A stretch of 64,000 nucleotides of DNA from an uncultured Verrucomicrobiae bacterium (GCA_963836315.1 CAWIJG010000002.1:1699791-1763790), one strand, 5' to 3'. Positions 7,733 to 59,474 are shown, counted from the stretch's first letter. Made by a program: numbers and translations. Notes: generated by a model not told the origin, from the letters alone.

Positions 7733-7744
7733 GGGAATGTTGTT

Positions 7745-10416: not shown

Positions 10417-10421
10417 GCGGT

Positions 10422-11282: not shown

Positions 11283-11284
11283 GT

Positions 11285-11755: not shown

Positions 11756-11846
11756 AAGAATTTCCCGATGACACTAGATTAATGACCCAGTTGGTGGCTC
11801 CACGCAAGCACGGAACGAGTTAGCGGTTGGCAGGATGTGCCGTATC

Positions 11847-18103: not shown

Positions 18104-18115
18104 AAACGTTCGCCG

Positions 18116-22891: not shown

Positions 22892-22967
22892 CGCGTGCAG
22901 CGTAACAGAAGGCCCTCGTGAAGGCAACGAATTGACTTGGCCGCCGGCGAACCGTAGACTTTCGGCC

Positions 22968-37734: not shown

Positions 37735-38700
37735 TCAAAATCCCAATCTCCGCCGCAAGCTCCGGCAGGCCATTCTCCCGAGTTCCCGACAAGAACGAAA
37801 CCGGGCGTGATTGTATCTTCGATAGTCTTCTGCGGTGAAGTATTCCTTGGCGTAGGGGAAGAACCCATCTGGCGTAATCAAGAACCCATCCGTTACATAC
37901 GGGTCAAAACCAAGGGCTGGAAAAGAACGCTTCTGAAGATGGATGTACGCATATTCGTGGTCGATGGTACCGCCGTCTCGATTCCGATAGGCTTGAAAAA
38001 TCTTGCCCTTGTACCAGTAGAAAACTTGATCGGAATAGTTCGTGATCTCCGTTCCCTCGAACCGGGTGTGCTTCCACCGTGTCGGAGCCCTTACGTCGAC
38101 GATGAACTCCGCATGGTATTGCACGACGTTGTGGTATCGCAGAATCGGGTGAATCCCGCGCCATTCGTCGAATTGCCTTGTCTCCGGGTCACGAAACGCA
38201 TCCCGGTAATTGACCACATTCGGGGCTTTCAGCGTGAAATACCGGTTCACTTCCGGAGTGTTGCGGTAGAGGCTCAGATGGGCTCGGTTGAGGACCTTGT
38301 TGTGAGACCGGAGAATATCTTCAGTGATAAACGCCCGTAGATCGCCGTAGATCACATCCAAATCACAGTGCCCCCAAAAATCGTATCCCGTAAGCGCTTC
38401 GGCGAATAAGCACCCGTAGGCGGGTTTGAATTTGCACAATTGGTAAGGATTTGGAAGGCTCACCTCAAAGCCCAACTTCTTGGAGAAGCCTTCCCGAAAT
38501 TCGTCCATGGTCGCGTGCTTGATATGCACATTCGAAGGAAGGCGCCGCGCCGTCTTGTCATCTGTAAAGACAAGCCAGTCGATGTCGGGATTGCCTTCGC
38601 AGGAACGGAGCACACAATCGATGTAGGACGGCAGTTTCCCTATGTAGCAGACGACCAGACAAACGGAATTTTTTGACTTCAATGGATCTGCATTAGCCAT
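37735..38700 (-). CDS. Hypothetical protein of a capsule/EPS-locus-associated family (DUF6625-like, possible GT-A-like transferase); lower GC than surroundings
   Basis: 321 aa. N-terminus VCLVVCYIGKLPSYIDCVLRSCEGNPDIDWLVFTDD and a D-x-D-like HCDLDVIYGD. Resembles uncharacterised proteins recurrent in polysaccharide loci. Local GC is visibly lower (~50%). Confidence 0.4.
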   Translation of the reverse strand: MANADPLKSKNSVCLVVCYIGKLPSYIDCVLRSCEGNPDIDWLVFTDDKTARRLPSNVHIKHATMDEFREGFSKKLGFEVSLPNPYQLCKFKPAYGCLFAEALTGYDFWGHCDLDVIYGDLRAFITEDILRSHNKVLNRAHLSLYRNTPEVNRYFTLKAPNVVNYRDAFRDPETRQFDEWRGIHPILRYHNVVQYHAEFIVDVRAPTRWKHTRFEGTEITNYSDQVFYWYKGKIFQAYRNRDGGTIDHEYAYIHLQKRSFPALGFDPYVTDGFLITPDGFFPYAKEYFTAEDYRRYNHARFRSCRELGRMACRSLRRRLGF

Positions 38701-39252: not shown

Positions 39253-40863
39253 TCAATTGCTGAGTGCGGCGGCAACGGCGTTGGCAGCATTGCGCGCGGA
39301 ACCGCCTTTGAGGGGACGGAACAGGATCGGCTCCTCCCCCAAGGATCCGGGAGTAATATCGTTGCCGTAGATGTCCGTCATGCGGAAGCCGGGCAGTGCG
39401 GCGATGGCGCGTGATTGTCCCTCGACGCACCACGCAAACACAATCATACCGGTCCTGGGCCGCTTCCATGTGTAGAGATAAACCTGGCCATCAAGGACCC
39501 GGCTGTCGCCGAGTTTTGCGTGGTTCAGCCAGTAGCAGGTCATCAAGAATGCCGAGGTCTTGGGGTGTGGGCCGCGCGGAGCGTACACGTTATTATTCGG
39601 GGCGGGCGACTCATCCCAGCCGTAGATTTCCCAGTTGGAATTTGAAACCGCTCCAAATAACCCCATGCATTGCGGAGCAAGGTCGACCACTCCGGCGGCG
39701 CGGTACATGATGGTCGTCTTAATGGTACGGCAGAAACCACGATACCATGAAAGCCCAGACATTGTAATAGTCTCATCGTCTGGGTGAGTTAAATTGGCAC
39801 CGAGTGCGCTGGTGCCGTAAAGCCCAATCTCGGTAACGAGCATCGGCTTCTTGGCAACCAACGGACCGAAGTTTGTCGCCAAACGGCTGGGGATCGGCAT
39901 GGCCCAAGAGTCGTTTTCATCAGGCGCCCACCAGCGCATGTCGTAATCGTGGAAGCTCCAGTAGTCGAGCATTTTCAGGATCCCCTGTTGAACCAAAGCG
40001 TCGCTCTCAGTTCGGATGCGGGGGCTGGCCCAGGTAGGACCAACGAGTTTGATGTTCAGATGCAGCGTCTTACGGACAGAATCTGCTGCGCGGGTGAGAT
40101 TCATCAACACAGGGACCACGTCCATCTCGTTGGTTCCGCCGAATTTCGTATACCACGGTTCATTCCAGATTTCCCAACCATAGAGCTTCGAGCCGTACCG
40201 CCGCATGGCGGCAGTGGCGAATTGGGTATAGGCGGTGACAAGTTCGTTCGTGCCCACCCAGGAAGGCACGCTATCGCCACCCAGATAGATGATTTTACGG
40301 TTGGTGCCTGCCAGGGCAGCCATGCCCTGATCCATCTGGGACCAATCCCAGACGTCACGTTGCGGCTGGACGACTGACCAACCGCCAAGGCCGGTACGTT
40401 CCCAACTTGGGCCCAACAGGGCATTCAGGCGGTCGCTGAAAAACCAAGCCCCGGTAAATTGCGAAGAGGGAAGAGAGGTCGGGGCATAGTCGTCTGGCAA
40501 CACGGCAAACTGTGTTCGGTCGCCATCGGTCTCGACGAAGTAATGGCCCTGCGAGAATTGCATGTTGGTCGAAGTGCCCTCGTAGACGACGTTGCCGAAC
40601 GTGTTCAGAACGCGAAATGGGTTCCCATTGGTCGTGGCAATCCCAATCGTATCGGAAACACGGAACAGGCCGTTCCTGTCATCAGGTGTTAGCTGAAATA
40701 CGCCGGGGTTGTAGACGTTAGACGAATACGAGAAGGGGATTGTGCTGACCGTCACCTGCGCGGAGGCGGGTCTGATCTCCTGAAACTGCAATGCAATCAA
40801 CCACAGCAGCACCAGCGGCCAGCTGTTGTGCTGCGTTTCTCGACGGGGAATACAGAGTGTCAT
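39253..40863 (-). CDS. Secreted glycoside hydrolase family 5-like
   Basis: Signal peptide (WPLVLLWLIALQF...ASAQ). GH5 signature GWEIWNEPW (catalytic acid/base NEP). Second conserved Glu region MLVTEIGLYG (nucleophile TE). 536 aa. Confidence 0.6.
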   Translation of the reverse strand: MTLCIPRRETQHNSWPLVLLWLIALQFQEIRPASAQVTVSTIPFSYSSNVYNPGVFQLTPDDRNGLFRVSDTIGIATTNGNPFRVLNTFGNVVYEGTSTNMQFSQGHYFVETDGDRTQFAVLPDDYAPTSLPSSQFTGAWFFSDRLNALLGPSWERTGLGGWSVVQPQRDVWDWSQMDQGMAALAGTNRKIIYLGGDSVPSWVGTNELVTAYTQFATAAMRRYGSKLYGWEIWNEPWYTKFGGTNEMDVVPVLMNLTRAADSVRKTLHLNIKLVGPTWASPRIRTESDALVQQGILKMLDYWSFHDYDMRWWAPDENDSWAMPIPSRLATNFGPLVAKKPMLVTEIGLYGTSALGANLTHPDDETITMSGLSWYRGFCRTIKTTIMYRAAGVVDLAPQCMGLFGAVSNSNWEIYGWDESPAPNNNVYAPRGPHPKTSAFLMTCYWLNHAKLGDSRVLDGQVYLYTWKRPRTGMIVFAWCVEGQSRAIAALPGFRMTDIYGNDITPGSLGEEPILFRPLKGGSARNAANAVAAALSN

Positions 40864-41333: not shown

Positions 41334-42434
41334 ATGATCTTGATGGGAGCAAGCTCCAACCCGAAAACGATTCTTGTCACCGGATCGAACGGCCTGATCG
41401 GGTCAGAGGTCTGCCTGCACTTCGCGGCGCGGGGATTCGCCGTCTCGGGCATCGACAACAACCAACGGGCGGTTTTTTTTGGACCCCAAGGGGACACGCG
41501 CTGGAACCAGGGCCGCCTCCAGAAGGCGATCCCTGATTTCCGTCATTACGAAGTCGATGTACGGGACCGTGCTCGCATCGAGCAGACGATCAAGGAAGTC
41601 TCGCCCCAGTTGATCGTGCATGCGGCGGCGCAACCGTCACACGATCTGGCCGCTTCCATGCCCTTTGAGGATTTTGACACCAATGCCGTTGGGACACTGA
41701 ACATGCTCGAGGCGACGCGCCGACATTGTCTGGAAACCCCGTTTGTGTATCTATCGACGAACAAGGTTTATGGAGATGGTCCCAACACAATTCGCCTTAA
41801 AGAGCACGAGACGCGCTGGGATTACGATGACCCTCGGTTCACCCACGGGATTCCGGAGACGTTTCCCGTGGATCAGGTCTTGCATTCGCTCTTCGGGGCC
41901 TCGAAGCTTGCGGCGGATACACTGGTCCAGGAATACGGACGCTATTTCAAGATGCCAACTTGCTGCTTGCGAGGCGGTTGCCTGACCGGCCCCAGTCATT
42001 CCGGGGTGGAACTCCATGGCTTTCTCAGCTATCTCATCAAGTGCAACTACGAGAACAAGCCGTACAAAGTTTACGGCTACAAGGGCAAACAGGTCCGCGA
42101 TAACATCCACTCCGAGGATGTGGCCGCGTTCATCTACGAGTTCTATCGCCGACCACGGGTGGCGGAGGTATATAACATCGGCGGTGGAGTCGAGAACTCC
42201 TGCTCGATTCTTGAGGCGTTTTCATTTGCAGAGAAGCTGAGTGGACGGAAGCAGGTATACGAATACGTCGATCAAAACCGGATTGGAGATCACATTTGCT
42301 ATTATAGTGACCTGCGCAAGATGAAGGAACACTATCCATCCTGGTCGATCACCAAGACCTTGCCACAGATTTTCAAGGAGATTGCGGCATCTTGGGGCCA
42401 GCGATTGGATCGGGGAGCCACGGATCACCACTAG
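41334..42434 (+). CDS. NAD-dependent epimerase/dehydratase (extended SDR), CDP-paratose/tyvelose 2-epimerase-like
   Basis: [11 protein letters not shown] Rossmann motif and YxxxK (YLSTNKVYG / ASKLAA). 366 aa. Confidence 0.75.
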
Positions 42435-42461: not shown

Positions 42462-43532
42462 ATGAAGATACTTATCACCGGGGTTTGCGGTTTTGTCGGC
42501 AGCACGATTGCGGAGGAGTTGGCCCGGTCGTCGTCGGGCTGCCAGTTGTTCGGGCTCGATAACCTGAGCCGGGCCGGTAGCGAGGTGAACCTGCCCCGCG
42601 TCAAGAAATGCGGCGTGCGTTTTTTCCCCGGCGACGTCCGGAACGCCAGTGATCTGGAATCTCTTCCCACCGTTGACTGGGTCATCGATGCCGCCGCCAA
42701 TCCGAGTGTGCTGGCGGGAATTACCGGCCAAGTGAGCAGCCGCCAGCTCATTGAACATAATCTGCTGGGGACCATCAACGTGTTGGAGCACTGCAAGCGC
42801 TCGAGCGGCGGGTTGATACTGCTCAGCACCAGCCGCGTCTATTCGATTGCCGCGCTGGCGAGCGCGCCGCTGGACGTGGTGAACGAAGCCTTCGTACCGC
42901 GGCGGCGTGAGATCAACCAACCGGGGTGGACGGAGCACGGGATTCGCGAAGACTTTTCCACCCAATCCCCCTTGTCCTTATATGGTTGCTCCAAACTCAC
43001 GTCGGAACTATTAGCGCAGGAGTACGGGGCGGCATTCGGATTGCCTGTTTACATCAACCGGTGTGGGGTCTTGGCCGGCGCGGGTCAATTCGGAAAGCCG
43101 GACCAGGGTATTTTCTCGTTCTGGATCCATTCCCACTGCCGGCGTCGCCCACTCAAATACATCGGCTTCGGCGGGCACGGCCATCAAGTGCGCGATTGCC
43201 TGCATCCGCGCGACCTCGTGCCGCTGTTGTACAAGCAGATGCAGAGCTCGGGCAGGCATGCCGGACAAATCATCAACTTGGGTGGCGGGATGGCCAGCGG
43301 CGTTTCTCTCGCGCAATTGAGCCAATGGTGTGATCGCCGGTTTGGTTCACACCCCGTCGGGAGCGACAGCGTCGACCGGCCCTTTGACATTCCCTGGATC
43401 GTGCTTGACCCGTCTCGCGCGGAGCAACTTTGGGGATGGCGGGCGACGACGTCGCTGGAACAGGTTCTGGACGAGATCGCCGAGCACGCCTTGGCGCACC
43501 CCGAGTGGTTGGACTTGTCAAGCAACCCATGA
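42462..43532 (+). CDS. NAD-dependent epimerase/dehydratase (extended SDR), paralogue of the preceding gene
   Basis: ITGVCGFVGSTIAEEL Rossmann motif and YGCSKLTSELL catalytic YxxxK. 356 aa. ATGA overlap with the next gene. Confidence 0.75.
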   Translation: MKILITGVCGFVGSTIAEELARSSSGCQLFGLDNLSRAGSEVNLPRVKKCGVRFFPGDVRNASDLESLPTVDWVIDAAANPSVLAGITGQVSSRQLIEHNLLGTINVLEHCKRSSGGLILLSTSRVYSIAALASAPLDVVNEAFVPRRREINQPGWTEHGIREDFSTQSPLSLYGCSKLTSELLAQEYGAAFGLPVYINRCGVLAGAGQFGKPDQGIFSFWIHSHCRRRPLKYIGFGGHGHQVRDCLHPRDLVPLLYKQMQSSGRHAGQIINLGGGMASGVSLAQLSQWCDRRFGSHPVGSDSVDRPFDIPWIVLDPSRAEQLWGWRATTSLEQVLDEIAEHALAHPEWLDLSSNP

Positions 43533-44314
43533 CCGAAACGCCTCCAGTGCCCCGACCGTTGACATTGCTTTCCGTGGTGCTTCCCGCGCGGGACGAAGAG
43601 GGGTGCATTTGCTCCACCGTGGAGCATCTGCACGTCGAATTGCGACTGCGCAATGTGCCGCACGAGATCATCGTGGTGGATGACGGCAGCACGGACGCGA
43701 CATGGCGATTACTTCTCGAACTGCAGCAGCGGGTGCCCACGCTGAGACCGGTTCAAAACACCGGGCTGCATGGGATTGGCCGAGCAATCATTTGTGGACT
43801 GGACGCCATGCGAGGCGACGCAGGGGTGATCATGATGGCCGACGAGTCGGACGACTGTCGTGATGTGGTGCGTTATTGGGTCGAATTGAACAAGGGGTTC
43901 GACTGCGTCTTCGGCAGCCGGTTTATCAAGGGTGGCGGGGTGATCGACTACCCCCCGCACAAGCTTGTGTTGAATCGTCTGGCCAATTATTTCCTCCGGA
44001 TTCTGTTCCGCATTCGGCTCAACGACACCACGAATGCGTTCAAAGCCTATCGCAAAGAGGTGATTATCGGCTGTCGTCCGCTGATCTCGCCGCATTTCAA
44101 CCTGTTAGTGGAACTTCCGTTGAAGGCGATCGTGCGTGGCTATACCTGGACGGTGATTCCCATCACGTGGCGCAATCGTCGCACCGGTGAGGCAAAGCTC
44201 AAGATCAAGGAGATGGGCAGCCGCTACCTGTTCATCTGTCTCTACGTCTGGCTGGAAAAGTATTTCAGCCAGGGCGACTACAAGAAACACGGCCAAAACT
44301 CATCCAACTGCTGA
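43529..44314 (+). CDS. GT2 polyprenyl-phosphate sugar synthase (DPM1/ArnC-like, soluble type)
   Basis: From MTETPP. LSVVLPARDEE...IIVVDDGSTD...MMADESDD (GT-A DXD). Resembles dolichol-/undecaprenyl-phosphate glycosyltransferases. No C-terminal TM domain. Confidence 0.75.
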   Translation: MTETPPVPRPLTLLSVVLPARDEEGCICSTVEHLHVELRLRNVPHEIIVVDDGSTDATWRLLLELQQRVPTLRPVQNTGLHGIGRAIICGLDAMRGDAGVIMMADESDDCRDVVRYWVELNKGFDCVFGSRFIKGGGVIDYPPHKLVLNRLANYFLRILFRIRLNDTTNAFKAYRKEVIIGCRPLISPHFNLLVELPLKAIVRGYTWTVIPITWRNRRTGEAKLKIKEMGSRYLFICLYVWLEKYFSQGDYKKHGQNSSNC

Positions 44315-44347
44315 AACCCCCGGCATCGTGGATTGCGGCGGTGTGGG

Positions 44348-45970
44348 TCAGGGAATCTCCTTGATGAGTATATCGTCATTCTGAAACAAAGTCTTCCAAC
44401 CATCCGCGACATGCGTCAGATGCAAGTGATAGGTCTCCCGCGCCAACCGGGCCTGTCCGGGATTGATCACTTGGACGGCATGGAGCAAGGGAGATTCACT
44501 TATCATAACCAGTTTGTTGTACCCGAGTTCTTTGATCCTCGCCAGGTTCGCGGGGTTTTCTAGAAACTCAGTGCCCCAAATGCTCAATCCCTTCCGGTTC
44601 GTCAGCAGAAACTCGTTGCCACCCCATCCGCCGTTCTGCACCAGCAGGCGGTCCGATTCGTTGGTGTACTTTTGGATTAGCGCCGCGATTTGGCGCGGGT
44701 ACGGATCGTATTCTTCGACAACCTTTATGCCCAGCAGTCCTTGAATCAAAGACAAGCCCAACAGGACGGCGGCGGCACCGACCCAAAGGCGTTCCCTTGA
44801 CAGGACGCTCGGCATCGCGAGGGCCTCAAAGTCCACCACTGCCTGTGCACAAAGCATGGCGATTGCCGGCGAATACATCAGGTAGTAGTGGCGATGGTGA
44901 AGAACAAGATGGGAAAAGATCATCGTTGTCAGGACATCTCCCAACAGCCAGTACTTGGACACGCTACCGCGCTTGCCGAACAAGAGCGCGTATCCCAGCA
45001 GCCCGACGAGAACCAGGCTGCCAAAGCAACAGTTCAGGATCCTCCAACAAGCTTTACCCCAGATCGCCGGAGAGAGACGGTAGTGCCAGTCTCCGAAGTA
45101 CCAAAAAACCATTTGCGGATCGGACAGGCGAAGATCAACCAGGGGAAACTCCGCTTGGGTGACGCAAGAATTTGTATGCCTCGTCCATGCGGCGAACGCG
45201 CTGGCCGCCACCAACCCCGCTGTCCCCAAAAGCAACCAGTGCCGATGGGATTGTCGGTGGAACCGAAGAAGCAGGAAAAACGCGGCAAGTCCTGCCGCCA
45301 TGAAAAAAGGCAGTTTTGAGGTGGCTGAAACCGCCCCTGATAGACACGCGAGTGCCCACCAGAATGCGTTCGGGTGTTGAAGGAGCTTCACGGCGAAGTA
45401 TAAGAACCACACCATGCTGGCAAGCGAGAATCCATCCGTACCCGCGACGCCCGAGTAAAAGAAAACAATCGGCTGAGCCAGAAAGAACACTAAGGTCCAC
45501 GCCGCGCAGCGCCTGCCAAGGTACTCGCGGGACACTTGGTAGAGTGGCCACAGGCAGGTGAAGAACAAGATAAGCGAGGTGATATTCCCCCACCCGAACC
45601 ACGGGCCGCAAAGCTTGAAAACCAGGGCGGTGGCGGCCTGCCAGAGGGGAAATTCCTGTGGAGTCGGCGTCTGCGAAGCATTGAAACCGACGATGACGGG
45701 TCGCAGAAGATCAATCCTTGTCCGGGCGTAGCGCAAAGCCGCACCCAGATGCTGATCGCGATAAAGTGGATAGCCCGCCCGGGCACTGGCTATATGAAAC
45801 AGGCAGGCAGCCACTGCAAAGAAGGCGGCCACAAGCAACAGTAGCTTGGTTCCGTTCTGCCGGGGTTTGTCGTCAATCATGGAATTTGGCCTGTCCTGCG
45901 AACACTTCGCATCCCATTCCGATGAGCTTGGAGCCCACAGAATACCCGCCCTTGCCGGATTTGCCAGCAA
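44348..45970 (-). CDS. GT-C fold membrane glycosyltransferase, ArnT/PMT-like (GT39/GT83-type)
   Basis: 540 aa, ~11 TM helices in the N-terminal 2/3, plus a ~180-aa C-terminal periplasmic domain. First periplasmic loop after TM1 (YPLYRDQHLGAALRYA) resembles the ArnT/PMT family. The start may instead be the internal MIDDKPRQ (45880). Confidence 0.5.
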   Translation of the reverse strand: MLANPARAGILWAPSSSEWDAKCSQDRPNSMIDDKPRQNGTKLLLLVAAFFAVAACLFHIASARAGYPLYRDQHLGAALRYARTRIDLLRPVIVGFNASQTPTPQEFPLWQAATALVFKLCGPWFGWGNITSLILFFTCLWPLYQVSREYLGRRCAAWTLVFFLAQPIVFFYSGVAGTDGFSLASMVWFLYFAVKLLQHPNAFWWALACLSGAVSATSKLPFFMAAGLAAFFLLLRFHRQSHRHWLLLGTAGLVAASAFAAWTRHTNSCVTQAEFPLVDLRLSDPQMVFWYFGDWHYRLSPAIWGKACWRILNCCFGSLVLVGLLGYALLFGKRGSVSKYWLLGDVLTTMIFSHLVLHHRHYYLMYSPAIAMLCAQAVVDFEALAMPSVLSRERLWVGAAAVLLGLSLIQGLLGIKVVEEYDPYPRQIAALIQKYTNESDRLLVQNGGWGGNEFLLTNRKGLSIWGTEFLENPANLARIKELGYNKLVMISESPLLHAVQVINPGQARLARETYHLHLTHVADGWKTLFQNDDILIKEIP

Positions 45971-46097: not shown

Positions 46098-46949
46098 ATG
46101 ACACCGCAACGGAGATTCATCAAGGCCTTGGACAGGCCCGGTCTTCAGCCAGTCCTGGCGTTCTTGGCGACCCGGTATGCTCGACGAAAAACCGGGCTGG
46201 ATGTGCAGATTTGTTATGATGCCGGGTGGATCCGGCGAGTGGGAGACTATTGTCTTGCCGAATCCACGACCTTTGACTGGCAGGCGGACCAAATCGCGGC
46301 ATGGCGGGACAATCTTGGCGATATTCTCGACATGCACCGGGACTGGTGGTTTTACCAATACAAGCCTAAGGAAGGTGATGTCGTGGTCGATATCGGCGCT
46401 GGCGTCGGGGAGGCAACGCTGCTCTTTTCGAAATCCGTGGGGACACGAGGAAGGGTTCTCTCCGTAGAGGCCCACCCCACGACCTTTCAGCTTTTGCAGA
46501 AGACCTGCCGCTACAATCAATTGGATCAGAACACAACCTGTCTGCAACGCGCCGTCATGGACAAAGCCGGCAGCATTCGTATTGATAATCGTGCTCACAA
46601 GGGTAGCACCATCCGATTGTCGGAGAATCATGACTCTTCACTTCCTCAGATAGCCGCGATATCACTGGATGAATTGTGTGCAGACCAGAGCATCTCCCAG
46701 GTTGACTTCCTGAAGATGAACATTGAGGGGGCCGAACGATTCGCGATCCAGGGGATGCCTCGCATGATTGAGCGGACGCGCGCACTGTGCATCGCCTGCC
46801 ATGACTTCATTGGTGCCCGCGATGGCTTTTATCGGACGAAGGCCTTGGTTATTGATTATCTGCGGGATCACAATTTTGATGTCGTCACGCGAGAACAGCA
46901 CCCGGAACCGTGGGCGAGAGACCATGTTTACGGAATCCGCAGGACATGA
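46098..46949 (+). CDS. FkbM-family SAM-dependent methyltransferase
   Basis: 283 aa. Class I MTase motif VVDIGAGVGEATLLF. FkbM-type C-terminus. Intact paralogue of the truncated gene at 36097. Confidence 0.8.
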   Translation: MTPQRRFIKALDRPGLQPVLAFLATRYARRKTGLDVQICYDAGWIRRVGDYCLAESTTFDWQADQIAAWRDNLGDILDMHRDWWFYQYKPKEGDVVVDIGAGVGEATLLFSKSVGTRGRVLSVEAHPTTFQLLQKTCRYNQLDQNTTCLQRAVMDKAGSIRIDNRAHKGSTIRLSENHDSSLPQIAAISLDELCADQSISQVDFLKMNIEGAERFAIQGMPRMIERTRALCIACHDFIGARDGFYRTKALVIDYLRDHNFDVVTREQHPEPWARDHVYGIRRT

Positions 46950-47691: not shown

Positions 47692-49242
47692 TCACTTGTT
47701 GGCGCCCAAAAGAGGGGCCAGCATCGGCTGGAAGAATCGTGGCACGTGCCCGAGGACTTCCACTCGCATTTCCCTGGTCATGCCGTAGCGGAGAAATAGA
47801 ATAAGACCGAGAGGGCCAAGCGACACTGCATTCACTACCAACCGTGGGACGGGCCGGAGCCCTTGGCCAAGATACCACACGACCAGTGCCGTCAGGATCA
47901 TGATCCCCGCCACTCTTACCGTCGTAGCCAGCCACCGAAGCTCCAATTCGGGAAAATGGAACCCGAAGTAGGCGTTGATGCGTTTGATACCGTAGGGCCC
48001 GCTGAAGCAGGCGCTGCACAAAATCGAGGTGCCAATAATCGCTGGAAAACCTCCTTGACGGCTCACCAGGCTGGCGACAATGACAAATACCAGGCCTTCC
48101 AGCAGATAGACGTACCGCATAAAGCCGATTCGTTTGGTCAGAATGGTGAAACAATTGTCGGCATGAACGACGATGGTAACGATCAGCCAGCAGTCCAATA
48201 GCACGTCATTCCATCCCGACCACGAGATCTTGCCCGCGGTCCACACAGTAACGAAGGTGCTATTGCAGGACGCGTAGATCACTGCGGCAACGACGCCGAT
48301 CACTTCCGAAATAACGAGGATTCCACTGAAACGCGTCCGCAGTCTCTCGTGCTCGCCCCGGACGATCATTTCGGAGAACGCCGGCTCCGAGAAATCATAA
48401 AACTGGTAGATCAACTGGCTGATGAAGGCAAACGCCTTCGTGCCCACAACCCAGACGGCCACCGCCACCAACCCCATGGTGCGTGAGATGATCACAGACT
48501 GGGTTGCCATGATCAGCAGGCTGCCGAGGTGGATCACGAACACATCCTTGCTATACATGAATAGTTCCTTGAACCGTGACCACACCGGTCTTCCCCAAGC
48601 ATGACGCGGGGGGAGCAACCGCAGCTTTAAACAGCTCCAGCAGTTGACGGACACGCTGAACATCAGGGCGAACGCATTCATCCACAGAATGCTGAACACG
48701 CCGGATTGCGCCCTTAATGCCACATAGAGAACTCCGAGCTGAACGAGAAACATAACGGCCTGCATGTGATTGATGATGTCGTTACGTTGGTGTGCATACA
48801 GAACGTTCCGGAACAAGCGGGTCGCAAAGGTTGCGCCGGTAATGGCGCATTGCCAGCGCACCAAAAGGTTGAACTGTGGCCGGACTTCGATTGGTATCCG
48901 CAGGAGATTGGCGAAGAATGGGGCCAGTAGTAGCCCCGTCGCCAGAATCAGGAGTCCCTGCACCAGATTCACCAGAACGGCTGTCTGGATCAGGCTCCCG
49001 TACGCCCCGCTGGCGGGTTGGTCCTTCTCTTCAATCAACAGGCGCGCCACGGCTGGCGACATGCCGAAATCGATCACGATCAGATAGCTCGCAATCTGAA
49101 ACATCAAGGCCCACAACCCGAACTCCTGCTTGGTTACGAAGTGGAGAGCCAGGGGTACGGAAGCAACCGAGTAGACGAGATTGCTTGCCAGCGATACATA
49201 GCTGGAAGCGATGCTGTGAAGAAAAAAACGAAGTCGTGACAT
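47692..49242 (-). CDS. wzx: Polysaccharide/O-unit flippase, Wzx-like (MOP superfamily, PST family)
   Basis: 516 aa, ~12-14 TM. N-terminal SYVSLASNLVYSVASVPLALHFVTKQEFGLWALMFQIASYLIVIDFGMSPAVARL, typical of PST-family transporters. Confidence 0.7.
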   Translation of the reverse strand: MSRLRFFLHSIASSYVSLASNLVYSVASVPLALHFVTKQEFGLWALMFQIASYLIVIDFGMSPAVARLLIEEKDQPASGAYGSLIQTAVLVNLVQGLLILATGLLLAPFFANLLRIPIEVRPQFNLLVRWQCAITGATFATRLFRNVLYAHQRNDIINHMQAVMFLVQLGVLYVALRAQSGVFSILWMNAFALMFSVSVNCWSCLKLRLLPPRHAWGRPVWSRFKELFMYSKDVFVIHLGSLLIMATQSVIISRTMGLVAVAVWVVGTKAFAFISQLIYQFYDFSEPAFSEMIVRGEHERLRTRFSGILVISEVIGVVAAVIYASCNSTFVTVWTAGKISWSGWNDVLLDCWLIVTIVVHADNCFTILTKRIGFMRYVYLLEGLVFVIVASLVSRQGGFPAIIGTSILCSACFSGPYGIKRINAYFGFHFPELELRWLATTVRVAGIMILTALVVWYLGQGLRPVPRLVVNAVSLGPLGLILFLRYGMTREMRVEVLGHVPRFFQPMLAPLLGANK

Positions 49243-51406: not shown

Positions 51407-52993
51407 TCAGTTCCCCAGGTTCCCGGGACGCAAAGCGAAACGGGGAACGGTTGCCGGCTGCGGTAAACGGATCGGTTCCGTTGCCGGAGCGGTTGCGGAG
51501 GGGGGATACCTCTCCGCCATGCCAAGGATCAGAACCAGCAGGCCCGTAAGAAGCAACATCTGGGGTACGTCAGCATCATAAGCGCCAAAAATCAATGTGA
51601 AATGGAACGGTATCCAGACCAACTGAACGGCCAAAAAAACCGCCGCGGGAAACAGGGGCGAGCCGCGGCACCGGCCAACACATTTTACGGAGTAGACCGC
51701 CGCGGCGATCATCCACGCATAGTACAGAACCAGTCCGATGACTCCCGCGAAGCGAATCGTGGTCAATGGACCGTTGTGAAGGTTGCCCGTTACAGTAAAC
51801 CAATCGAAGGTGTGGGACGAGAACGCCATCAAATTGAAGTCGCTTTCAGTGACACCAAAACCGTCACCCGTCCACCAGTTCTTGATCACGCCTTCGCTAA
51901 GAATGGTGCGCCACCACGCAAAGCGCCCCTCCGAACTTTCTCTGGCTTCGTCCTTGACGACTTCGGTCCACTCGCCGGGCAGAAAGGCGAGTGCTCGTTG
52001 GGCGGTCAAGGGCAATTGGAAAAAGCGACCCTGGCCGAAGATCAGGATCCCGACGAATAACGTGCCGACGGCCCCCACCAGGACCATGTGACGCCAGCTG
52101 CGTTGGAATATCGAAGCGAGCACGACCGACACCATCGCGTAGGCCAGCATATTGCGGAAACCCGAAGCCAGGATGCCCGCGATGGCCAGTAGAAACAGAT
52201 AGCACCGCCACCGCAGCGGATTAAAGAGTGTTTGCGGCGGGTAATAGGCCACCAGAATCTGCACCAGCATCAGGCCGAAACCGCCCAGTTGCATGAATCG
52301 TCTGATCTCCGGCTCCCCCGTCCTCACCGAAGCGAAGAGGCTTGAGGTGTCGATGCCCCCATAGAAGGGCAGAATAAACCTTGCAGTGGACGGAAAGATG
52401 TACACGATCACGTTGATTGCAGTGACAAGGACCATTCCCCCCAACATCCAAAGCGGAGCTTTGGAAACGCTCTGGTAGGATTCGGGCAAATGCACGATCA
52501 CCCAATATGCGAACAGGGCAAGTAACATGTTGATGTAGGGACGTGCGCCCATCGTCTCGGCACCGAGCGCCCGCACTCCTGCGGGGTGCAACACAAATGT
52601 GAAGGCAATATAGGCGCAGTTGACGGCCACGAGTGTTTCCAATATGCCCCAGGGCCGGCGAGCGTTGCTGCCAATCAGGACGCGATAGGTGATATACCCG
52701 CACATCGCGAGCAAGATCGAGATGTCATGGATTGAAGCTGGTACGGGAAGCACGTAGGTACTGCCCGTGATGTACCAACAAACGAGAATCAGCAGCCAGG
52801 CATTTCGTTGCAGTCCCACGGCCACCAAGGTCGCTAGGATCACCCCCCCCAAGATTCCGAGCATGAGCATCTGCTGGTCCGCAATCCAGAAAGATACGGC
52901 AATCGCTACGGCGAAGCCAATGGTCAGAACGGTCCACCGACGGATGTACTCGGGGGCCAGCAGAGGGTTCTGTATAATGTCGAAAAGTTTCAT
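51407..52993 (-). CDS. O-antigen polymerase/ligase family membrane protein (Wzy/WaaL-like)
   Basis: ~12 TM with a large periplasmic loop near the C-terminal third (EWTEVVKDEARESSEGRFAWWRTIL). Start taken at MKLFDI; the ORF-track extension to 53101 is unlikely. Confidence 0.6.
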   Translation of the reverse strand: MKLFDIIQNPLLAPEYIRRWTVLTIGFAVAIAVSFWIADQQMLMLGILGGVILATLVAVGLQRNAWLLILVCWYITGSTYVLPVPASIHDISILLAMCGYITYRVLIGSNARRPWGILETLVAVNCAYIAFTFVLHPAGVRALGAETMGARPYINMLLALFAYWVIVHLPESYQSVSKAPLWMLGGMVLVTAINVIVYIFPSTARFILPFYGGIDTSSLFASVRTGEPEIRRFMQLGGFGLMLVQILVAYYPPQTLFNPLRWRCYLFLLAIAGILASGFRNMLAYAMVSVVLASIFQRSWRHMVLVGAVGTLFVGILIFGQGRFFQLPLTAQRALAFLPGEWTEVVKDEARESSEGRFAWWRTILSEGVIKNWWTGDGFGVTESDFNLMAFSSHTFDWFTVTGNLHNGPLTTIRFAGVIGLVLYYAWMIAAAVYSVKCVGRCRGSPLFPAAVFLAVQLVWIPFHFTLIFGAYDADVPQMLLLTGLLVLILGMAERYPPSATAPATEPIRLPQPATVPRFALRPGNLGN

Positions 52994-53299
52994 TACCGGG
53001 GGCGTCTTCCAGCATTCAGCGTACCCGGACTTTACATGTGCCCTCGTCAACCTGCAAGTGCCTCGGAAAGAAATCTGCTGGCAGGGAGGATCCTTGGCCA
53101 CAGCCCGCAGGATTTATGCGATTCGGCGCCGAATCAGAGTGGGAATTCCTGCCAGGCGCTTTCGGGCCGCACATTGAAACTTGGGCTTGAAAAGGCATTT
53201 GATGAACCTATACCGGCTGTGCTAGGAATCAGCCTGGCCCCGCCCATGAGAATGCCCGGGGATCGGAAGGCAATATCCTGAGCGTCGGAGCCGGATGAC

Positions 53300-54481
53300 G
53301 TGATGACAGCTACAACGGTTGAAGTTTCTGTAGTGATCCCGTGTTTGAATGAGGCGCGGTCCATCGCCTTTTGTGTGGACAAAGCCTTGGCCGGGTTCAA
53401 AGCCGGGGGCATCGCCGGTGAAGTAATCGTGGCCGACAACGGTTCGACGGACGGTTCACAGCAGATTGCCATGCAGCATGGGGCGCGTGTCGTAGTCGTC
53501 GCGCTGAAAGGGTATGGACACGCCTTGCGGACGGGCATCGAGGCCGCGTGGGGGCAGTTCATCATCATGGGCGACGCCGATGACAGTTACGATTTCTCGG
53601 AGGCGCCGCGGTTTGTAGCCCAATGGCGTGAAGGATGGGAAGTGGTGATGGGCAATCGGTTTGCGGGCGAGATCAAGGCAGGCGCGATGCCCTGGCACCA
53701 CAGGTATATCGGCAACCCGGTTTTGTCGGGTTTGTTGCGGATATTGTTCCACGCTCACATTGGTGATTCGCATTGCGGGATGCGGGGGTTCACCAAGTCG
53801 GTGTATGAGCGAATGGATTTGCGGACCACCGGCATGGAATTTGCCAGCGAGTTTGTCATCAAGGCTGCCAAGCTCCAGGTGCGCATGACGGAGATCCCCA
53901 TCACTCTCTGGCCCGACAAACGCGGGCGGCCTCCGCATCTGCGCAGTTTTCGCGATGGCTGGCGCCACCTGCGTTTCATGCTGCTGTACGCTCCCAATTG
54001 GTTGTTTCTCGGCCCCGGTGGAGCGTTAATGACGGTCGGACTGGCGCTGGTCGTCTGGCTCCTGCCGGGACCGCGTTGGATCGGCCAGGTGCGGTTTGAC
54101 ATTCACACGATGTTCTTTGGGGTTCTCTTTACGTTACTGGCGATGCAGATTCTATCGATCGGACTGTTTGCCAAGATTTTCTCGTACACCGAGCGATTTG
54201 ATCATTCCAACGTCGGATTGAGCCGCTGGCTGCGGCGGCTGCCGCTGGAAAGCGGGCTGGTGGCCGGAACGGCGCTGGCAATCGTGGGCTTCGTCGGAAA
54301 TGTGGCCATCTTTTGGAAGTGGAAACAAGGGGGATTTGGGGCATTGTCGGAAATGCGATGGCTGTTGTTTTGGTCGATGTTGTTTTTCATCGGGGCCCAG
54401 ATCGTGTTTTCATCTTTCTTTATGAGCATGCTCGGCGTCAGCCGCGGAACCTATGTTGGCGACAAAGAGTTTCAGTCATGA
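53300..54481 (+). CDS. GT2 polyprenyl-phosphate glycosyltransferase with C-terminal TM domain (ArnC/GtrB/CsbB-like)
   Basis: VSVVIPCLNEARSI...VIVADNGSTDGS...IIMGDADDSYD GT-A motifs. Four C-terminal TM helices (LFLGPGGALMTVGLALVVWLL...). Architecture of undecaprenyl-phosphate sugar synthases. Confidence 0.8.
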   Translation: MMTATTVEVSVVIPCLNEARSIAFCVDKALAGFKAGGIAGEVIVADNGSTDGSQQIAMQHGARVVVVALKGYGHALRTGIEAAWGQFIIMGDADDSYDFSEAPRFVAQWREGWEVVMGNRFAGEIKAGAMPWHHRYIGNPVLSGLLRILFHAHIGDSHCGMRGFTKSVYERMDLRTTGMEFASEFVIKAAKLQVRMTEIPITLWPDKRGRPPHLRSFRDGWRHLRFMLLYAPNWLFLGPGGALMTVGLALVVWLLPGPRWIGQVRFDIHTMFFGVLFTLLAMQILSIGLFAKIFSYTERFDHSNVGLSRWLRRLPLESGLVAGTALAIVGFVGNVAIFWKWKQGGFGALSEMRWLLFWSMLFFIGAQIVFSSFFMSMLGVSRGTYVGDKEFQS

Positions 54482-55787
54482 CGGGAGCGGTGTGCCAACC
54501 GTATTAGTGACCGGGGCCGCGGGTTTCATTGGCCGAAATGTTGTCACCCGCCTGCTGCAACGCGGCTGGCACGTGAAGGCGATGGTGCGGCGCTTGGAAA
54601 CGTCTGAGGGGTTGCCGAAAAATGATCTTCTCGAAATCGTCCAGGCCGACATGCGGGATGTGGAGGCGCTACGCCGGGCGGTGCAAGATACAGATGCCGT
54701 CGTTCATCTCGCCGCCGCGAAGACCGATGAGAAGGATAGCGAAGAGATCAATGTCGGCGGCGCACGGAATTTGGTGGCCAACTGCCGCGCAACAGGGTGT
54801 TTGCGCATAGTCAACATCAGCACGCAATCGGCAAAAATCCTTCGCAAGGGGTTGTACGCGCGAACCAAGAGTGCAGCCGACGAGGTGTTTCACGGTTCAG
54901 GGTTGGCGGTGACCACCCTGCTGCCGAGTATCGTTTACGGGGATGAAACCAGCGGCGTGTTCGGTACTGTGCTGGGTTTCGTGCAGAGGCTGCCAGTGGT
55001 GCCGGTTCTGGGGGATGGTCGGTGGATTTCGGCGCCAGTCTATGTGGGTGATGTGGCCGAAGCGATTCTCGCCTGCTTGGAACACGACAAGACGATCGGT
55101 CAACGCTACGATCTGGGCGGTCCCGACCAACTCTCGTTCGACGATTTCATCGACCGCATTTGTGCTGCCCGGTCCATCCGGCGACCGAAGTTGCACATCC
55201 CATTTGGCCTGTCACTCCTGGCGGCCCGGGTCGCGACGCGGCTGTTGCCCAAGCCGGCGATCACCATCAGCAATGTGCTCGGGTCCAACCAGAATACCCA
55301 CATCGATATCGGACCTGCCCGGCGAGACTTCGGATTTCAGCCGATGGATTTTCAAAGCGGCTTGGCACGCGTGCTCGGAGCCGTAACCGCCGAAGATCGC
55401 ATTCTTGCCACGGAAAGCACCACAATCGCGCGGTATTTGATTGGGCGGGCACCCTCGCTCGAATTGCAACACCGATATGCGGCCGCGTGCCGGGTGCGAT
55501 TGCGCGAGGGCGCGGACGTCGAACTGGAGTTCGCCCGCCGCCATCCGTACTCCTGGCCGTTCTTGGATGCCGCCACCGGGCTGCTCCGCCCGTATTCAGG
55601 CGTGCGAGAGCGAGTGTTTCTGATGGCTGCGGTGCTGGAAGCGTCACCGGAACACGCGGAGTTCTTCCTCAAACCGCCGGAGAAGCCACTGAAGTTAATA
55701 ACCCGTGTGGCCTGGCAGGGAATCCGTAGCGTGGTGTTGGCTGCGGTTGGTGTTCCACTTTTGTTCTGGGCGAGGCGCAGAGCATGA
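54453..55787 (+). CDS. NAD(P)-binding SDR-type epimerase/reductase with ~140-aa C-terminal extension ending in a TM helix
   Basis: VLVTGAAGFIGRNVVTRL Rossmann motif, YARTKSAAD (YxxxK). C-terminal hydrophobic segment VVLAAVGVPLLFW. Overlaps the GT2 end. Alternative GTG start at 54489. Confidence 0.7.
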   Translation: MLATKSFSHDGSGVPTVLVTGAAGFIGRNVVTRLLQRGWHVKAMVRRLETSEGLPKNDLLEIVQADMRDVEALRRAVQDTDAVVHLAAAKTDEKDSEEINVGGARNLVANCRATGCLRIVNISTQSAKILRKGLYARTKSAADEVFHGSGLAVTTLLPSIVYGDETSGVFGTVLGFVQRLPVVPVLGDGRWISAPVYVGDVAEAILACLEHDKTIGQRYDLGGPDQLSFDDFIDRICAARSIRRPKLHIPFGLSLLAARVATRLLPKPAITISNVLGSNQNTHIDIGPARRDFGFQPMDFQSGLARVLGAVTAEDRILATESTTIARYLIGRAPSLELQHRYAAACRVRLREGADVELEFARRHPYSWPFLDAATGLLRPYSGVRERVFLMAAVLEASPEHAEFFLKPPEKPLKLITRVAWQGIRSVVLAAVGVPLLFWARRRA

Positions 55788-58496: not shown

Positions 58497-59474
58497 ATGT
58501 CCGATACGGGTTCACCCTTAGAAACCACGCGTGCACACCGTCCGATACTCGTAACCGGGTCACACCGATCCGGGACAACCTGGGTAGGGAAAATCATCAG
58601 TTCGTCCCCGACGGTGGGCTATATTCAGGAACCGTTTAACATCCACTGCCGACCCGGGCGATGCACTGCGCGATTTCCGTACTGGTTCCAATACATATGT
58701 GAAGAGAACGAAGAACAGTACCTCCATCATATCGAACAGACCCTTCAGTTCCGCTATCACGTTGGGGAGGAAATCGGGGTCATGCGCGGGCCTCGGGACG
58801 CGGCCCGGATGGTGCGGGACCTCTGGCGATTTCAGTTTCATCGGATCAACCGCCATCGCCCGCTGCTCCGTGATCCCTTTGCGTTCTACTCGGCGGAATG
58901 GCTCGCCAAACGGTTTGCCTTCGATGTGGTGGTTCTAATCCGTCAGCCATCTGCGTTTGTGGCGAGCGTCAAGCTGCTCCAGTGGGAGCATCCATTCGAT
59001 CATTTCCTCAAACAACCCCTCTTGATGCGCGATCATCTGGGCGCGTTTGAAGGCGAGATCCGTGAGTTTGCGGAGCGGAAGCAGGCCGTCGTAGATCAGG
59101 CCATTCTGCTATGGCGATTGACTCACAGCGTTATCATCCGTTATCGCGACAGGCATCCGGAATGGATCTTCGCCCGTCACCGCGATCTTTCGTTGAACCC
59201 GTTGTCGGAATTTCCCCAGATTTTTGCGCGGCTGAACCTGCCCTACGGAGTCCGTGAAGAGATCAATACGCGCCATTACTGCATGGCGGAGGCAAGACGA
59301 ACCAGATATGTTTGGGATGACGTCGTTCGCAACTCGGCGCGGAACGTGAGCTTATGGCGAAAAGTATTGACCGATGAGGAGTTGGAGCGGGTGCGTGAAA
59401 GGTGCTACGACATCGCGCAACACTTCTTTTCGAAGGAGGAAATGCCTGCCATCGGGCTCGTGCCGGGAGCGTAG
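58497..59474 (+). CDS. PAPS-dependent sulfotransferase family protein
   Basis: 5'-PSB P-loop-like motif ILVTGSHRSGTTWVGKI near the N-terminus, and a 3'-PB-like region (VVVLIRQPSAFVASV). 325 aa. Confidence 0.65.
   Translation: MSDTGSPLETTRAHRPILVTGSHRSGTTWVGKIISSSPTVGYIQEPFNIHCRPGRCTARFPYWFQYICEENEEQYLHHIEQTLQFRYHVGEEIGVMRGPRDAARMVRDLWRFQFHRINRHRPLLRDPFAFYSAEWLAKRFAFDVVVLIRQPSAFVASVKLLQWEHPFDHFLKQPLLMRDHLGAFEGEIREFAERKQAVVDQAILLWRLTHSVIIRYRDRHPEWIFARHRDLSLNPLSEFPQIFARLNLPYGVREEINTRHYCMAEARRTRYVWDDVVRNSARNVSLWRKVLTDEELERVRERCYDIAQHFFSKEEMPAIGLVPGA

Follow-up and report, generated by a model that had tools for sequence, protein, structure and literature searches.

A conserved verrucomicrobial gene module with a probable role in extracytoplasmic glycosylation through a lipid-linked monosaccharide

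Genes at the locus

The stretch of DNA analysed here (64,000 nt, hereafter the window) carries four adjacent genes encoding two extended SDR proteins (SDR1 and SDR2), a glycosyltransferase without TM helices (GT2), and a membrane glycosyltransferase (GT-C). They lie among glycan genes that comprise GT4, Wzx, Wzy, acetyltransferase and sulfotransferase genes and a glycosidase-like gene. The features used below are:

21902-23128: LpxD
41334..42434, + strand: SDR1, extended SDR related to CDP-tyvelose 2-epimerase (Pfam Epimerase PF01370, 138 bits)
42462..43532, + strand: SDR2, extended SDR related to CDP-tyvelose 2-epimerase (Pfam Epimerase PF01370, 97 bits)
43529..44314, + strand: GT2, polyprenyl-phosphate glycosyltransferase-like GT-A enzyme (261 aa, PF00535, no TM helices)
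44348..45880, - strand: GT-C, GT-C-fold membrane glycosyltransferase (510 aa, PMT_2), convergent with GT2 across a 33 bp gap
46098..46949, + strand: FkbM-family methyltransferase (PF05050, 57 bits; TIGR01444, 86.5 bits), divergent from GT-C
47692..49242, - strand: Wzx-like MOP-family flippase (NCBIfam WZX_like, 39 bits, below cut-off; ~12-14 TM helices)
51407-53101: Wzy_C protein
53300-54481: GT2b, of a second GT2/GT-C pair
60154-62592: YfhO, of the same second pair

The four ORFs of the initial annotation are all present as it described them, except for the start of GT-C. The 540-aa ORF that it reported (44348-45970, - strand) is the maximal reading frame and opens at a TTG; the gene and its convergent orientation are real, but the true start is almost certainly the ATG at 45880, since an identical 510-aa protein is known (P0001) and nearly all of the ~120 homologs measure 500-530 aa and begin their alignment at this ATG. 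Proteins identical to SDR2 (P0511) and to the 261-aa GT2 (P0121) also exist in the collections. The exact 366-aa SDR1 is absent from the collection, its orthologs having ~351-356 aa, and its true start may lie a few codons further downstream. The GT2 ATG overlaps the SDR2 stop codon (ATGA). The second GT2/GT-C pair noted in the same window does exist (GT2b and YfhO). The module was also thought to be self-contained, which is not supported: no nucleotidyltransferase gene was found in the 64,000-nt window, and no dedicated small flippase, sought as an ATG-started ORF of 80-200 aa with at least three hydrophobic segments, was found in 36-64 kb.

Predicted properties of the four proteins

The GT-C fold proposed for the membrane protein is well supported. 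Its AlphaFold2 model is confident (pLDDT 91.6, pTM 0.91), its best Foldseek match is ArnT (5F15, E 4.4e-10), and PMT_2 (PF13231, clan GT-C) scores 33.4 bits for a gathering score of 26.1. The Pfam searches recommended by the initial annotation thus matched GT-C with PF13231 and GT2 with PF00535 (64.8 bits), but gave no PF02366. According to a topology derived by the positive-inside rule, ~11 TM helices are followed by a C-terminal periplasmic alpha/beta domain of ~125 aa with an invariant GGWGG at 417-421. Conserved residues include R41, D42, H44, E76, D149, K189, R268, H329, and Y332, and every residue with at least 95% conservation lies on the inferred periplasmic face. Enzymes of this fold carry conserved acidic residue(s) (DD/DE/DxD) in the first extracytoplasmic loop (PMC7801869). 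In GT-C, D42 of the YRDxH motif sits 8 residues past TM1 in loop 1 (D in 110/119 members, 92%, and E in 2), E76 in the same loop is invariant, and D149 in loop 2 is 97% conserved. Conserved acidic residues are present in the predicted periplasmic loops, but the canonical adjacent DE/DD pair is absent from loop 1, which has RDQH. The model displays the GT-C fold itself, from which the transfer chemistry is predicted.

Three family identities were examined for GT-C and rejected. For ArnT (GT83), neither phmmer nor a family profile gave any match among all PDB chains, hhalign against E. coli ArnT returned a probability of 0.2%, and no NCBIfam ArnT match was obtained; ArnA-, ArnB-, and ArnD-like genes were not found in the window. 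For PMT (GT39), PF13231 alone matches, PF02366, MIR, and the DE motif are lacking, and the loop after TM7 has just ~30 residues. For STT3/PglB/AglB (GT66), the periplasmic domain has no WWDYG motif.

The sequence and model of GT2 support a polyprenyl-phosphate glycosyltransferase of the Dpm1/GtrB/ArnC type, as had been proposed. Its closest PDB sequence match is the Pyrococcus DPMS (5MLZ, E 1.4e-21), with ArnC and GtrB next, and the 25 best Foldseek matches of its model are ArnC, DPMS, and GtrB. The top NCBIfam matches are PgfS (the best), AglJ, Dol-P-hexose transferase, ArnC, and PpgS, every one below its cut-off (30-47 bits for cut-offs of 325-529), so that orthology to any of the five is not indicated. 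GT2 keeps the acceptor-side motif R-x-G-E-S-K of DPMS as RRxGxAKLK, and its motifs are conserved among its orthologs. Hydropathy reveals no TM segment, and human DPM1 and the catalytic domain of mycobacterial Ppm1 are likewise TM-less; the C-terminus of GT2 carries a highly conserved hydrophobic/amphipathic segment, RYLFICLYVWLEKYF, modelled with low confidence. The initial annotation would have given up its reading if GT2 proved to be a processive polysaccharide synthase or if the membrane protein lacked a GT-C fold or acidic loop motif. Neither is the case: GT2 has no QxxRW motif, TM domain, or other processive-synthase feature in its sequence, and its PgaC match (NCBIfam) is limited to the N-terminal 90 residues. 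Two observations count against the synthase reading. The DXD (DAD) site aligns as MADESDD, with the first Asp replaced by Met and the second retained, a form conserved in ~24 orthologs, while canonical paralogs neighbouring GT2 have DADLQ or DADDS; and the GT2 model reaches no more than moderate confidence (pLDDT 64).

Among solved structures, both SDRs come closest to the CDP-tyvelose 2-epimerases 9RL0 and 1ORR, with 9RL0 as best PDB match of SDR1 (E 1.4e-41) and SDR2 (E 6.4e-29). The catalytic triad of TyvE is Thr124/Tyr164/Lys168 (PMC13098431). SDR2 has all three residues together with a DQG segment, and its motifs STSRVY and LYGxSK are shared by 17 orthologs. SDR1 has Thr, Phe, and Lys, the Phe standing at the Y164-equivalent position in HSLFGASK; the same Phe is found in 14/14 SDR1 orthologs and in 105/118 subfamily representatives covering the site, which places SDR1, judged by sequence, in a large tyvelose-epimerase-related subfamily with Phe for the catalytic Tyr. 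Thus, of the "two SDR epimerases" initially proposed, both are tyvelose-epimerase-like but an epimerase role is doubtful for SDR1. Among the CDP-binding residues of TyvE (W207, W210, F211, D204, R237, and R299; PMC7851689), the R237 and R299 equivalents are kept in both proteins, D204, with Q205, only in SDR2, and W207/W210/F211 become F/Y/L in SDR1 and I/F/W in SDR2. SDR1-family proteins occur fused to Leloir glycosyltransferases (GT11, GT26, GT2), and also to FkbM or class-I methyltransferases. Since both diphosphate-binding Arg of TyvE are kept (PMC7851689) and such Leloir fusions exist, the SDRs would act on a nucleotide-sugar.

Linkage, proposed pathway, and acceptor

The genomic coupling of GT2 and GT-C is conserved across Verrucomicrobiota. 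We collected 54 genome loci encoding a GT-C relative, 23 of which extend 5 kb or more in both directions from it. Orthologs of GT2 (55-89% identity) were present within the available flank at 25/54 loci, directly adjacent to GT-C (<300 bp) at 12/54, and less than 10 kb away at 13 of the 23 well-flanked loci. A single-copy gene placed at random in a few-Mb genome would fall that close in well under 1% of cases, so the arrangement is not due to chance. GT2, SDR1, and SDR2 are all present at 11 loci, and these counts bear out a conserved module of GT2, GT-C, and the two SDRs. Arrangements vary: SDR1-GT2 pairs adjoin other polytopic GT-C-like proteins and YfhO at three loci (L058, L059, L005). Roughly half of the GT-C relatives lack a GT2 inside 10 kb, and at one locus (L002) GT-C sits among unrelated genes. 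The position next to a Wzx/Wzy pathway had been regarded as unusual, which is wrong, as about half of the related loci (24/54) have homologs of GT4, Wzy, Wzx, or AcT; three-component systems typically lie within clusters for O-antigen or cell-wall polysaccharide (PMC11127046, PMC9574508). GT9 and Wzy_C/ligase-like genes add to this glycan context at L047.

Since characterised members are absent from all four families, function was assigned purely by homology. On this basis, the four adjacent genes most likely link sugar tailoring to lipid-carrier loading and to extracytoplasmic transfer onto a cell-envelope molecule, and we favour, with some confidence, a conserved Verrucomicrobial extracytoplasmic glycosylation module acting through a lipid-linked monosaccharide. 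In the cytoplasm, SDR2, with its intact triad, and the non-canonical SDR1 would tailor a nucleotide-sugar. The FkbM methyltransferase is tentatively included as a possible accessory methylating this sugar; its ortholog is not conserved at related loci, and non-orthologous methyltransferases directly adjoin GT2 at two of them (L047 and L061). GT2 would dock on the inner leaflet through its C-terminal amphipathic segment and move the tailored sugar onto polyprenyl phosphate, as suggested by homology and fold. The lipid-linked sugar would then be flipped. The Wzx-like protein, polytopic by hydropathy and encoded 1.8 kb from GT-C, is, speculatively, both the O-unit flippase of the surrounding cluster and the sole nearby candidate for this step, for which MOP/MATE flippases in three-component systems offer a precedent (PMC11127046); Wzx homologs are not conserved at related loci, occurring <10 kb from GT-C in two only (L018 and L032). 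Finally, GT-C would pass the sugar to its acceptor using the periplasm-facing D42 and E76 (loop 1), D149 (loop 2), K189/R268, and H329/Y332. In this window, the acceptor is most likely an envelope glycan (EPS, O-antigen, or LPS core) from the surrounding Wzx/Wzy cluster, which is the weakest point of the proposal. Across classes of the phylum, GT-C (42-77% identity) and above all GT2 (69-89%) are conserved, a pattern more in keeping with a conserved acceptor (lipid A/core or a protein motif) than with a polysaccharide that varies between strains.

The same donor route could serve a protein acceptor, with GT-C O-glycosylating Ser/Thr of periplasmic or envelope proteins like PMT/TMTC with Dol-P-Man, which we judge unlikely, though it has the best claim among the alternatives. 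The Pgf system of Streptococcus mutans (PgfS/PgfE/PgfM1, GalNAc), which unites an epimerase, a GT-A, and a GT-C enzyme (PMC12041528), is a parallel, and PgfS is the best NCBIfam match of GT2; the SDR1-GT2 pair of L058 is flanked by five paralogs combining 9-11 TM helices with TPR repeats, that is, the TMTC architecture; and strong conservation of the GT-C periplasmic domain would agree with an acceptor motif that is itself conserved. However, GT-C lacks the DE motif as well as any TPR or MIR domain, it lies inside a polysaccharide cluster in the window, and no candidate Ser/Thr-rich substrate gene was found nearby.

The order of steps could also differ, whatever the acceptor, if GT2 loaded a common sugar and SDR2 and/or SDR1 epimerised it on the lipid. 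DprE1/DprE2 work in this order, and so does the SDR ORF13 of Citrobacter youngae O2. Conversion of UndP-Ribf into UndP-Xylf by an SDR is established (PMC11127046). SDR2 directly adjoins GT-C without GT2 at three loci (L011, L020, L029), and the window lacks a nucleotidyltransferase for an unusual NDP-sugar. Against these points, SDR1 and SDR2 keep both nucleotide-diphosphate-binding Arg of TyvE (PMC7851689), the GT11 and GT26 enzymes fused to SDR1-family proteins are cytoplasmic users of nucleotide-sugars, and neither SDR has a membrane-binding segment, making this order rather improbable.

We give still less credit to lipid A or the LPS inner core as the acceptor, as for ArnC/ArnT or Rhizobium RgtE/RgtA-D. 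A donor route and transferase conserved throughout the phylum would fit such an acceptor, the module in L047 adjoins GT9 heptosyltransferase-like and Wzy_C/ligase-like genes, and the genome makes lipid A, since the LpxD gene is present. Yet GT-C resembles ArnT neither in sequence nor in profile, Arn-type sugar genes are absent, and several genomes have at least two GT-C paralogs (L017/L037, L048/L055), suggesting several acceptors. It is very improbable that GT-C is a PglB/AglB-like oligosaccharyltransferase or ligase acting on the Und-PP-linked Wzx/Wzy product, with GT2 an unrelated neighbour, given the GGWGG in place of WWDYG, the separate Wzy_C protein, and a conserved linkage to a polyprenyl-P-type GT2 that is hardly a coincidence.

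Comparison with known systems

With GtrA/GtrB/GtrC and the Citrobacter youngae ORF15/ORF14/ORF12 plus SDR ORF13 (PMC11127046), the proposed module shares a cytoplasmic enzyme making a polyprenyl-P-monosaccharide, a GT-C protein whose C-terminal periplasmic domain accompanies (here predicted) transfer of the exported sugar, an auxiliary SDR epimerase diversifying that sugar, and a location inside an O-antigen or EPS cluster. It differs in that GtrB has two TM helices and GT2 has no TM anchor, in the absence of a GtrA, SMR, or dedicated MATE flippase gene, in a GT-C unrelated in sequence to GtrC types or GT136, and in its two tyvelose-epimerase-like SDRs, one without the catalytic Tyr.

ArnC/ArnT (lipid A Ara4N; PDB 5EZM/5F15, 9ASC) follow the same two-step logic and provide the best fold matches of GT2 and GT-C, respectively. 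In contrast to ArnT, with 13 TM helices and D55/E56, GT-C has ~11 helices, a single Asp (RDQH), and no detectable similarity in sequence or profile; GT2 scores 30.8 bits for an ArnC cut-off of 529 bits, and the ArnA, ArnB, ArnD, and ArnE/F flippase genes are absent here. For Dol-P-Man synthase with PMT/TMTC (5MLZ; 6P25), the solved protein nearest to GT2 in sequence is DPMS, and PMT_2 matches GT-C, whereas the DAD motif is MAD in GT2, and GT-C lacks the DE motif, MIR domain, and TPR repeats. The adjacent SDRs suggest a tailored sugar rather than mannose.

PpgS/Rv3634c/Rv3779 (mycobacterial GalN on arabinogalactan) and PgfS/PgfE/PgfM1 (PMC12041528) likewise combine an SDR epimerase with a polyprenyl-P GT2 and a GT-C. 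The GT2 described here matches PgfS and PpgS far under their equivalog cut-offs (47 for 500 and 30 for 370), PgfM1 is YfhO-type and unrelated to GT-C, and the epimerases of these systems are GalE-type 4-epimerases, unlike the TyvE-like SDRs described here. TyvE itself (1ORR, 9RL0; PMC13098431) is only ~30-35% identical to SDR1 and SDR2. Besides the residues compared above, SDR1 has QPSHD for the VAM segment, the cytidine-stacking residues are not conserved in either SDR, and the CDP-glucose pathway genes (ddh, prt, rfbF) are absent from the window.

The GT-C/GT2 module is therefore neither an ArnT nor a PMT ortholog but of the three-component type, with the same logic as GtrA/B/C, ArnC/ArnT, PpgS/Rv3779, CsbB/YfhO, and PgfS/PgfM1. 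Glycosylation through lipid-linked sugars is already well known as a strategy, and the module described here would be a new representative of it.

A tightly packed four-gene module

The module consists of two tandem extended SDRs (SDR1 and SDR2), a 261-aa polyprenyl-phosphate-glycosyltransferase-like protein (GT2) and a convergent membrane protein (GT-C), whose genes are tightly packed inside a polysaccharide cluster extending from about 36.5 to 62.6 kb of the window.

Genes of the module
41334-42434, + strand, SDR1, 27 bp before SDR2
42462-43532, + strand, SDR2, stop codon overlapped by the GT2 ATG
43529-44314, + strand, GT2, ATG start overlapping the SDR2 stop
44348-45880, - strand, GT-C, polytopic, 510 aa, convergent with GT2

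Since the GT2 ATG overlaps the stop codon of SDR2, the first three genes form an operon-like unit. The GT2 stop is separated by 33 bp from the end of GT-C, and no convincing terminator was found in this convergent spacer. The initial annotation gave GT-C a span of 44348-45970, the longest open reading frame, read from a TTG; the membrane protein itself is real, and by comparison with its homologs it almost certainly begins at the ATG at 45880. A 510-aa protein of identical sequence has already been recorded, and almost every listed homolog is 500-530 aa long, its alignment beginning at that methionine. The nearest relatives of the module all come from Verrucomicrobiota metagenome-assembled genomes.

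The GT-C protein and its GT2 partner

Residues 78-232 of the 510-aa GT-C match the Pfam family PMT_2, whose gathering score is 26.1, with 33.4 bits. No solved relative was found by sequence when all PDB chains were searched using phmmer and a 28-sequence family profile, and hhalign detected no similarity between GT-C and E. coli ArnT. Because this sequence-level placement failed, there was no alignment by which to place the catalytic residues on ArnT. The AlphaFold model obtained from the family alignment is confident (pLDDT 91.6, pTM 0.91), and its top Foldseek match is the ArnT of C. metallidurans (E 4.4e-10, TM 0.61), followed by STT3/PglB, ALG12, AftA, AftD, Emb and Pmt4. Judged from this model, the protein encoded at 44348-45880 certainly has a GT-C fold, and it stands about equally far from several GT-C families.

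The model helices combined with the positive-inside rule predict about 11 TM helices, an N-terminus inside and an alpha/beta domain of about 125 residues outside. In the alignment of 119 family members, all charged or aromatic residues conserved in at least 95% of the sequences lie on the inferred periplasmic side, including R41, H44, E76, H329 and Y332 (100% each), K189 (99%), D149 and R268 (97% each), and D392 and R429 in the soluble domain. A defining feature of the GT-C/PMT clan is an acidic residue in the region eight residues past TM1 (D55/E56 in ArnT, D77/E78 in Pmt1; PMC7801869), and there GT-C carries D42, an aspartate in 92% of the 119 members, within a YRDxH motif. Where ArnT and Pmt1 have acidic pairs, GT-C displays a single, not quite invariant Asp and, further along that loop, a Glu that is invariant. 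The fold and the acidic loop residue expected in the initial annotation are both present, although the canonical DE/DD pair is absent.

GT2 matches PF00535 in Pfam (64.8 bits), and its top NCBIfam matches, PgfS, AglJ, dolichyl-phosphate hexose transferase, ArnC and PpgS, are all polyprenyl-phosphate glycosyltransferases, every score being far under the equivalog cut-off. The nearest solved protein is the Pyrococcus dolichyl-phosphate mannose synthase (DPMS; E 1.4e-21 over 216 residues, R-x-G-E-S-K segment included), and ArnC and GtrB come next. The AlphaFold model of GT2 is only moderately confident (pLDDT 64, with a good N-terminal half) because the alignment is shallow (75-93% identity), but its 25 best Foldseek matches are consistent even so, all being ArnC, DPMS and GtrB. 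Neither a TM helix nor a processive-synthase motif was found in GT2; a processive synthase was ruled out, since a TM domain is lacking and the match to PgaC is partial and N-terminal only, so that the earlier assignment to the polyprenyl-phosphate type holds. The family is distinguished by the replacement of its DAD motif by MADESDD and by a near-invariant C-terminal amphipathic segment, RYLFICLYVWLEKYF. Its orthologs are unusually conserved, with 69-89% identity across the phylum.

The tandem SDRs and the sugar

SDR1 and SDR2 are most similar to CDP-tyvelose 2-epimerases (TyvE), with E-values of 1.4e-41 and 6.4e-29, respectively, for PDB entry 9RL0. The catalytic triad of TyvE is Thr124/Tyr164/Lys168 (PMC13098431). 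SDR2 retains the triad and the D204/Q205 segment; SDR1 retains Thr-Asn-Lys and Lys168, has a Phe at the Tyr164 site and fails the TyvE triad test. The initial description of two epimerases is therefore right as to similarity and too specific for SDR1. Phe occupies this site in 14/14 Verrucomicrobial SDR1 orthologs and in 105 of the 118 best cluster representatives covering it, and Phe-type representatives mostly have QPSHD in place of the VAM segment of TyvE. Fusions in the SDR1 subfamily involve a class-I methyltransferase, GT11, a methyltransferase together with a GT2, WecG/TagA (GT26) or an FkbM methyltransferase. A decayed pseudogene was ruled out, since the Phe is kept across a large subfamily with functional-looking fusions. 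The cluster representatives P0241-P0390 delineate a large group of SDRs akin to CDP-tyvelose 2-epimerase, with HS-x-F-G-x-SK and a conserved QPSH[DE] segment. Such a Tyr-less subfamily could uncover a previously unseen variation in nucleotide-sugar chemistry.

In TyvE, two Arg residues hold the nucleotide diphosphate (PMC7851689), and both are present in SDR1 and SDR2. Their retention favors the two SDRs acting on a nucleotide-sugar, upstream of GT2. Alternatively, the SDRs would epimerise the sugar after lipid loading, by analogy with ORF13 of C. youngae, a precedent for epimerisation of a lipid-linked sugar (PMC11127046). Methyltransferases recur beside the module: the window has FkbM, and class-I SAM methyltransferases lie directly downstream of the GT2 ortholog at two related loci (L047, within 11653-18922; L061, 4555-5232). 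This recurrence hints at a methylated sugar. No nucleotidyltransferase was found in the window.

Genomic company, acceptor and known systems

A scan using one genome per species gave 54 loci encoding GT-C relatives, essentially all labelled Verrucomicrobiota. A GT2 ortholog lies in the available flank at 25 of them, at no more than 300 bp in 12; of the 23 loci flanked by 5 kb or more on both sides, 13 have it within 10 kb. SDR1 is found at 13 of the 54 loci, SDR2 at 17, and both together with GT2 at 11. Seen from GT2, SDR1-GT2 is the tightest pair and the partners vary by genome. At one locus on another Verrucomicrobial contig (L058, 2795-15414), SDR1 and GT2 orthologs (86% and 83% identity) are flanked by five paralogs of 593-690 aa, for which hydropathy indicates 9-11 TM segments in four and about 6 in the 593-aa one; all five bear C-terminal TPR repeats, the architecture of TMTC-type O-mannosyltransferases. 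At another (L059, 5603-16771), the SDR1-GT2 pair is tandemly duplicated and interleaved with an SDR2 ortholog, a gene for a 525-aa protein with 10 TM helices, one for a 648-aa polytopic protein and a YfhO-like gene, and at a third (L005) YfhO is immediately beside SDR1. This varied company is what would be expected if GT2 made a common lipid-linked donor used by several periplasmic transferases.

Besides the module, the cluster in the window contains two GT4s, FkbM, Wzx, an acetyltransferase, Wzy, three more GT2s, YfhO and the following genes.

Further genes of the polysaccharide cluster
37735-38700, DUF6625 protein (286 bits)
39253-40863, - strand, 536-aa glycosidase-like secreted protein, hydrophobic N-terminus, WEIWNEPW motif
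58497-59474, sulfotransferase (PF13469)

The sulfotransferase and DUF6625 genes suggest a sulfated polysaccharide and an uncharacterised transferase-like component. The 536-aa protein has no Pfam or NCBIfam match and shows weak similarity (E ~0.03) to GH10 xylanases and GH1 glucosidases around WEIWNEPW; it is possibly a glycosidase of clan GH-A belonging to the cluster. Upstream of the glycan region, three AcrB-type RND transporters, HlyD-type adaptors, an outer-membrane factor and a TetR regulator are encoded (4505-19396), and LpxD at 21902-23128 indicates that the organism makes lipid A. Among the nearby ORFs, no small flippase of the GtrA or SMR type was detected. The sole candidate for flipping is the Wzx-like protein, which is not conserved alongside the module.

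Homologs of the cluster genes occur at 24 of the 54 related loci, and in Methylacidimicrobium (L047) the module is followed by a GT4, a GT9 heptosyltransferase-like gene and a Wzy_C/O-antigen-ligase-like gene. Because of these glycan-gene surroundings, an envelope glycan is the most likely acceptor. A protein or lipid A/core acceptor is kept alive by the strong conservation of GT2 and of the GT-C periplasmic domain, by the TPR-bearing paralogs and by one related locus without any glycan genes.

Verrucomicrobiota are abundant in soil, freshwater and gut, and to our knowledge their envelope glycans are almost unstudied; our literature searches found no paper on the Verrucomicrobial protein families of this module. 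The GT2, with 70-90% identity phylum-wide, is linked to a large GT-C family without a characterised member, and this linkage marks a common surface modification approachable in a cultivable relative. MAG loci from relatives of Chthoniobacter, Pedosphaera and Methylacidimicrobium (L019, L006 and L047) carry the module. Speculatively, and we consider this unlikely as a whole, the four genes would be the core of a phylum-wide, undescribed envelope modification. The Tyr-less SDR (Phe and QPSHD) and its canonical partner would make an unusual sugar, possibly 2-epimerised and methylated; the highly constrained, anchor-less GT2 with its altered DXD would attach that sugar to polyprenyl phosphate; and a set of GT-C enzymes, comprising the 510-aa family (itself then a new CAZy family) and the TPR-bearing and YfhO-type paralogs, would use the lipid-linked sugar on conserved envelope targets.

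The window also encodes a candidate second lipid-linked-sugar pathway (53300-57400 and 60154-62592). Its GT2b (53300-54481; 393 aa, four C-terminal TM helices; NCBIfam AglJ 1e-38, PpgS 3e-22) overlaps, head to tail, the genes for an HpnA-like SDR of 444 aa and a GMC-type FAD oxidoreductase of 538 aa, and a YfhO-type GT-C (60154-62592) lies 2.7 kb beyond these genes. A flavoenzyme and an SDR beside a polyprenyl-phosphate glycosyltransferase are reminiscent of DprE1/DprE2-type epimerisation of a lipid-linked sugar. FAD oxidoreductase and GT2b homologs are also found near the 510-aa GT-C at two related loci (L036, L040). Two three-component systems within one cluster are plausible and not surprising.

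The source names of the four module proteins are generic or automatic, and "dolichol-phosphate mannosyltransferase", "family 39 glycosyltransferase" and "CDP-paratose 2-epimerase" are not justified at the orthology level. The ArnT/PMT-like module proposed initially is right in outline and too specific in name, as membership tests for ArnT and PMT failed, like those for OST and the named GT2 enzymes. Its position next to Wzx/Wzy had been thought unusual, wrongly, since such systems are as a rule embedded in clusters for O-antigen or cell-wall polysaccharide (PMC11127046, PMC9574508). The mechanism is ordinary; the phylum-wide conservation, the tyrosine-less SDR subfamily and the GT-C, which if characterised would probably define a new glycosyltransferase family, stand out to a moderate degree. 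By analogy, the logic of the module is that of three-component extracytoplasmic glycosylation, as in the Gtr, Arn, PpgS/Rv3779, CsbB/YfhO, Pgf and pentofuranose systems (Kelly et al. 2024), and it is not orthologous to any characterised example.
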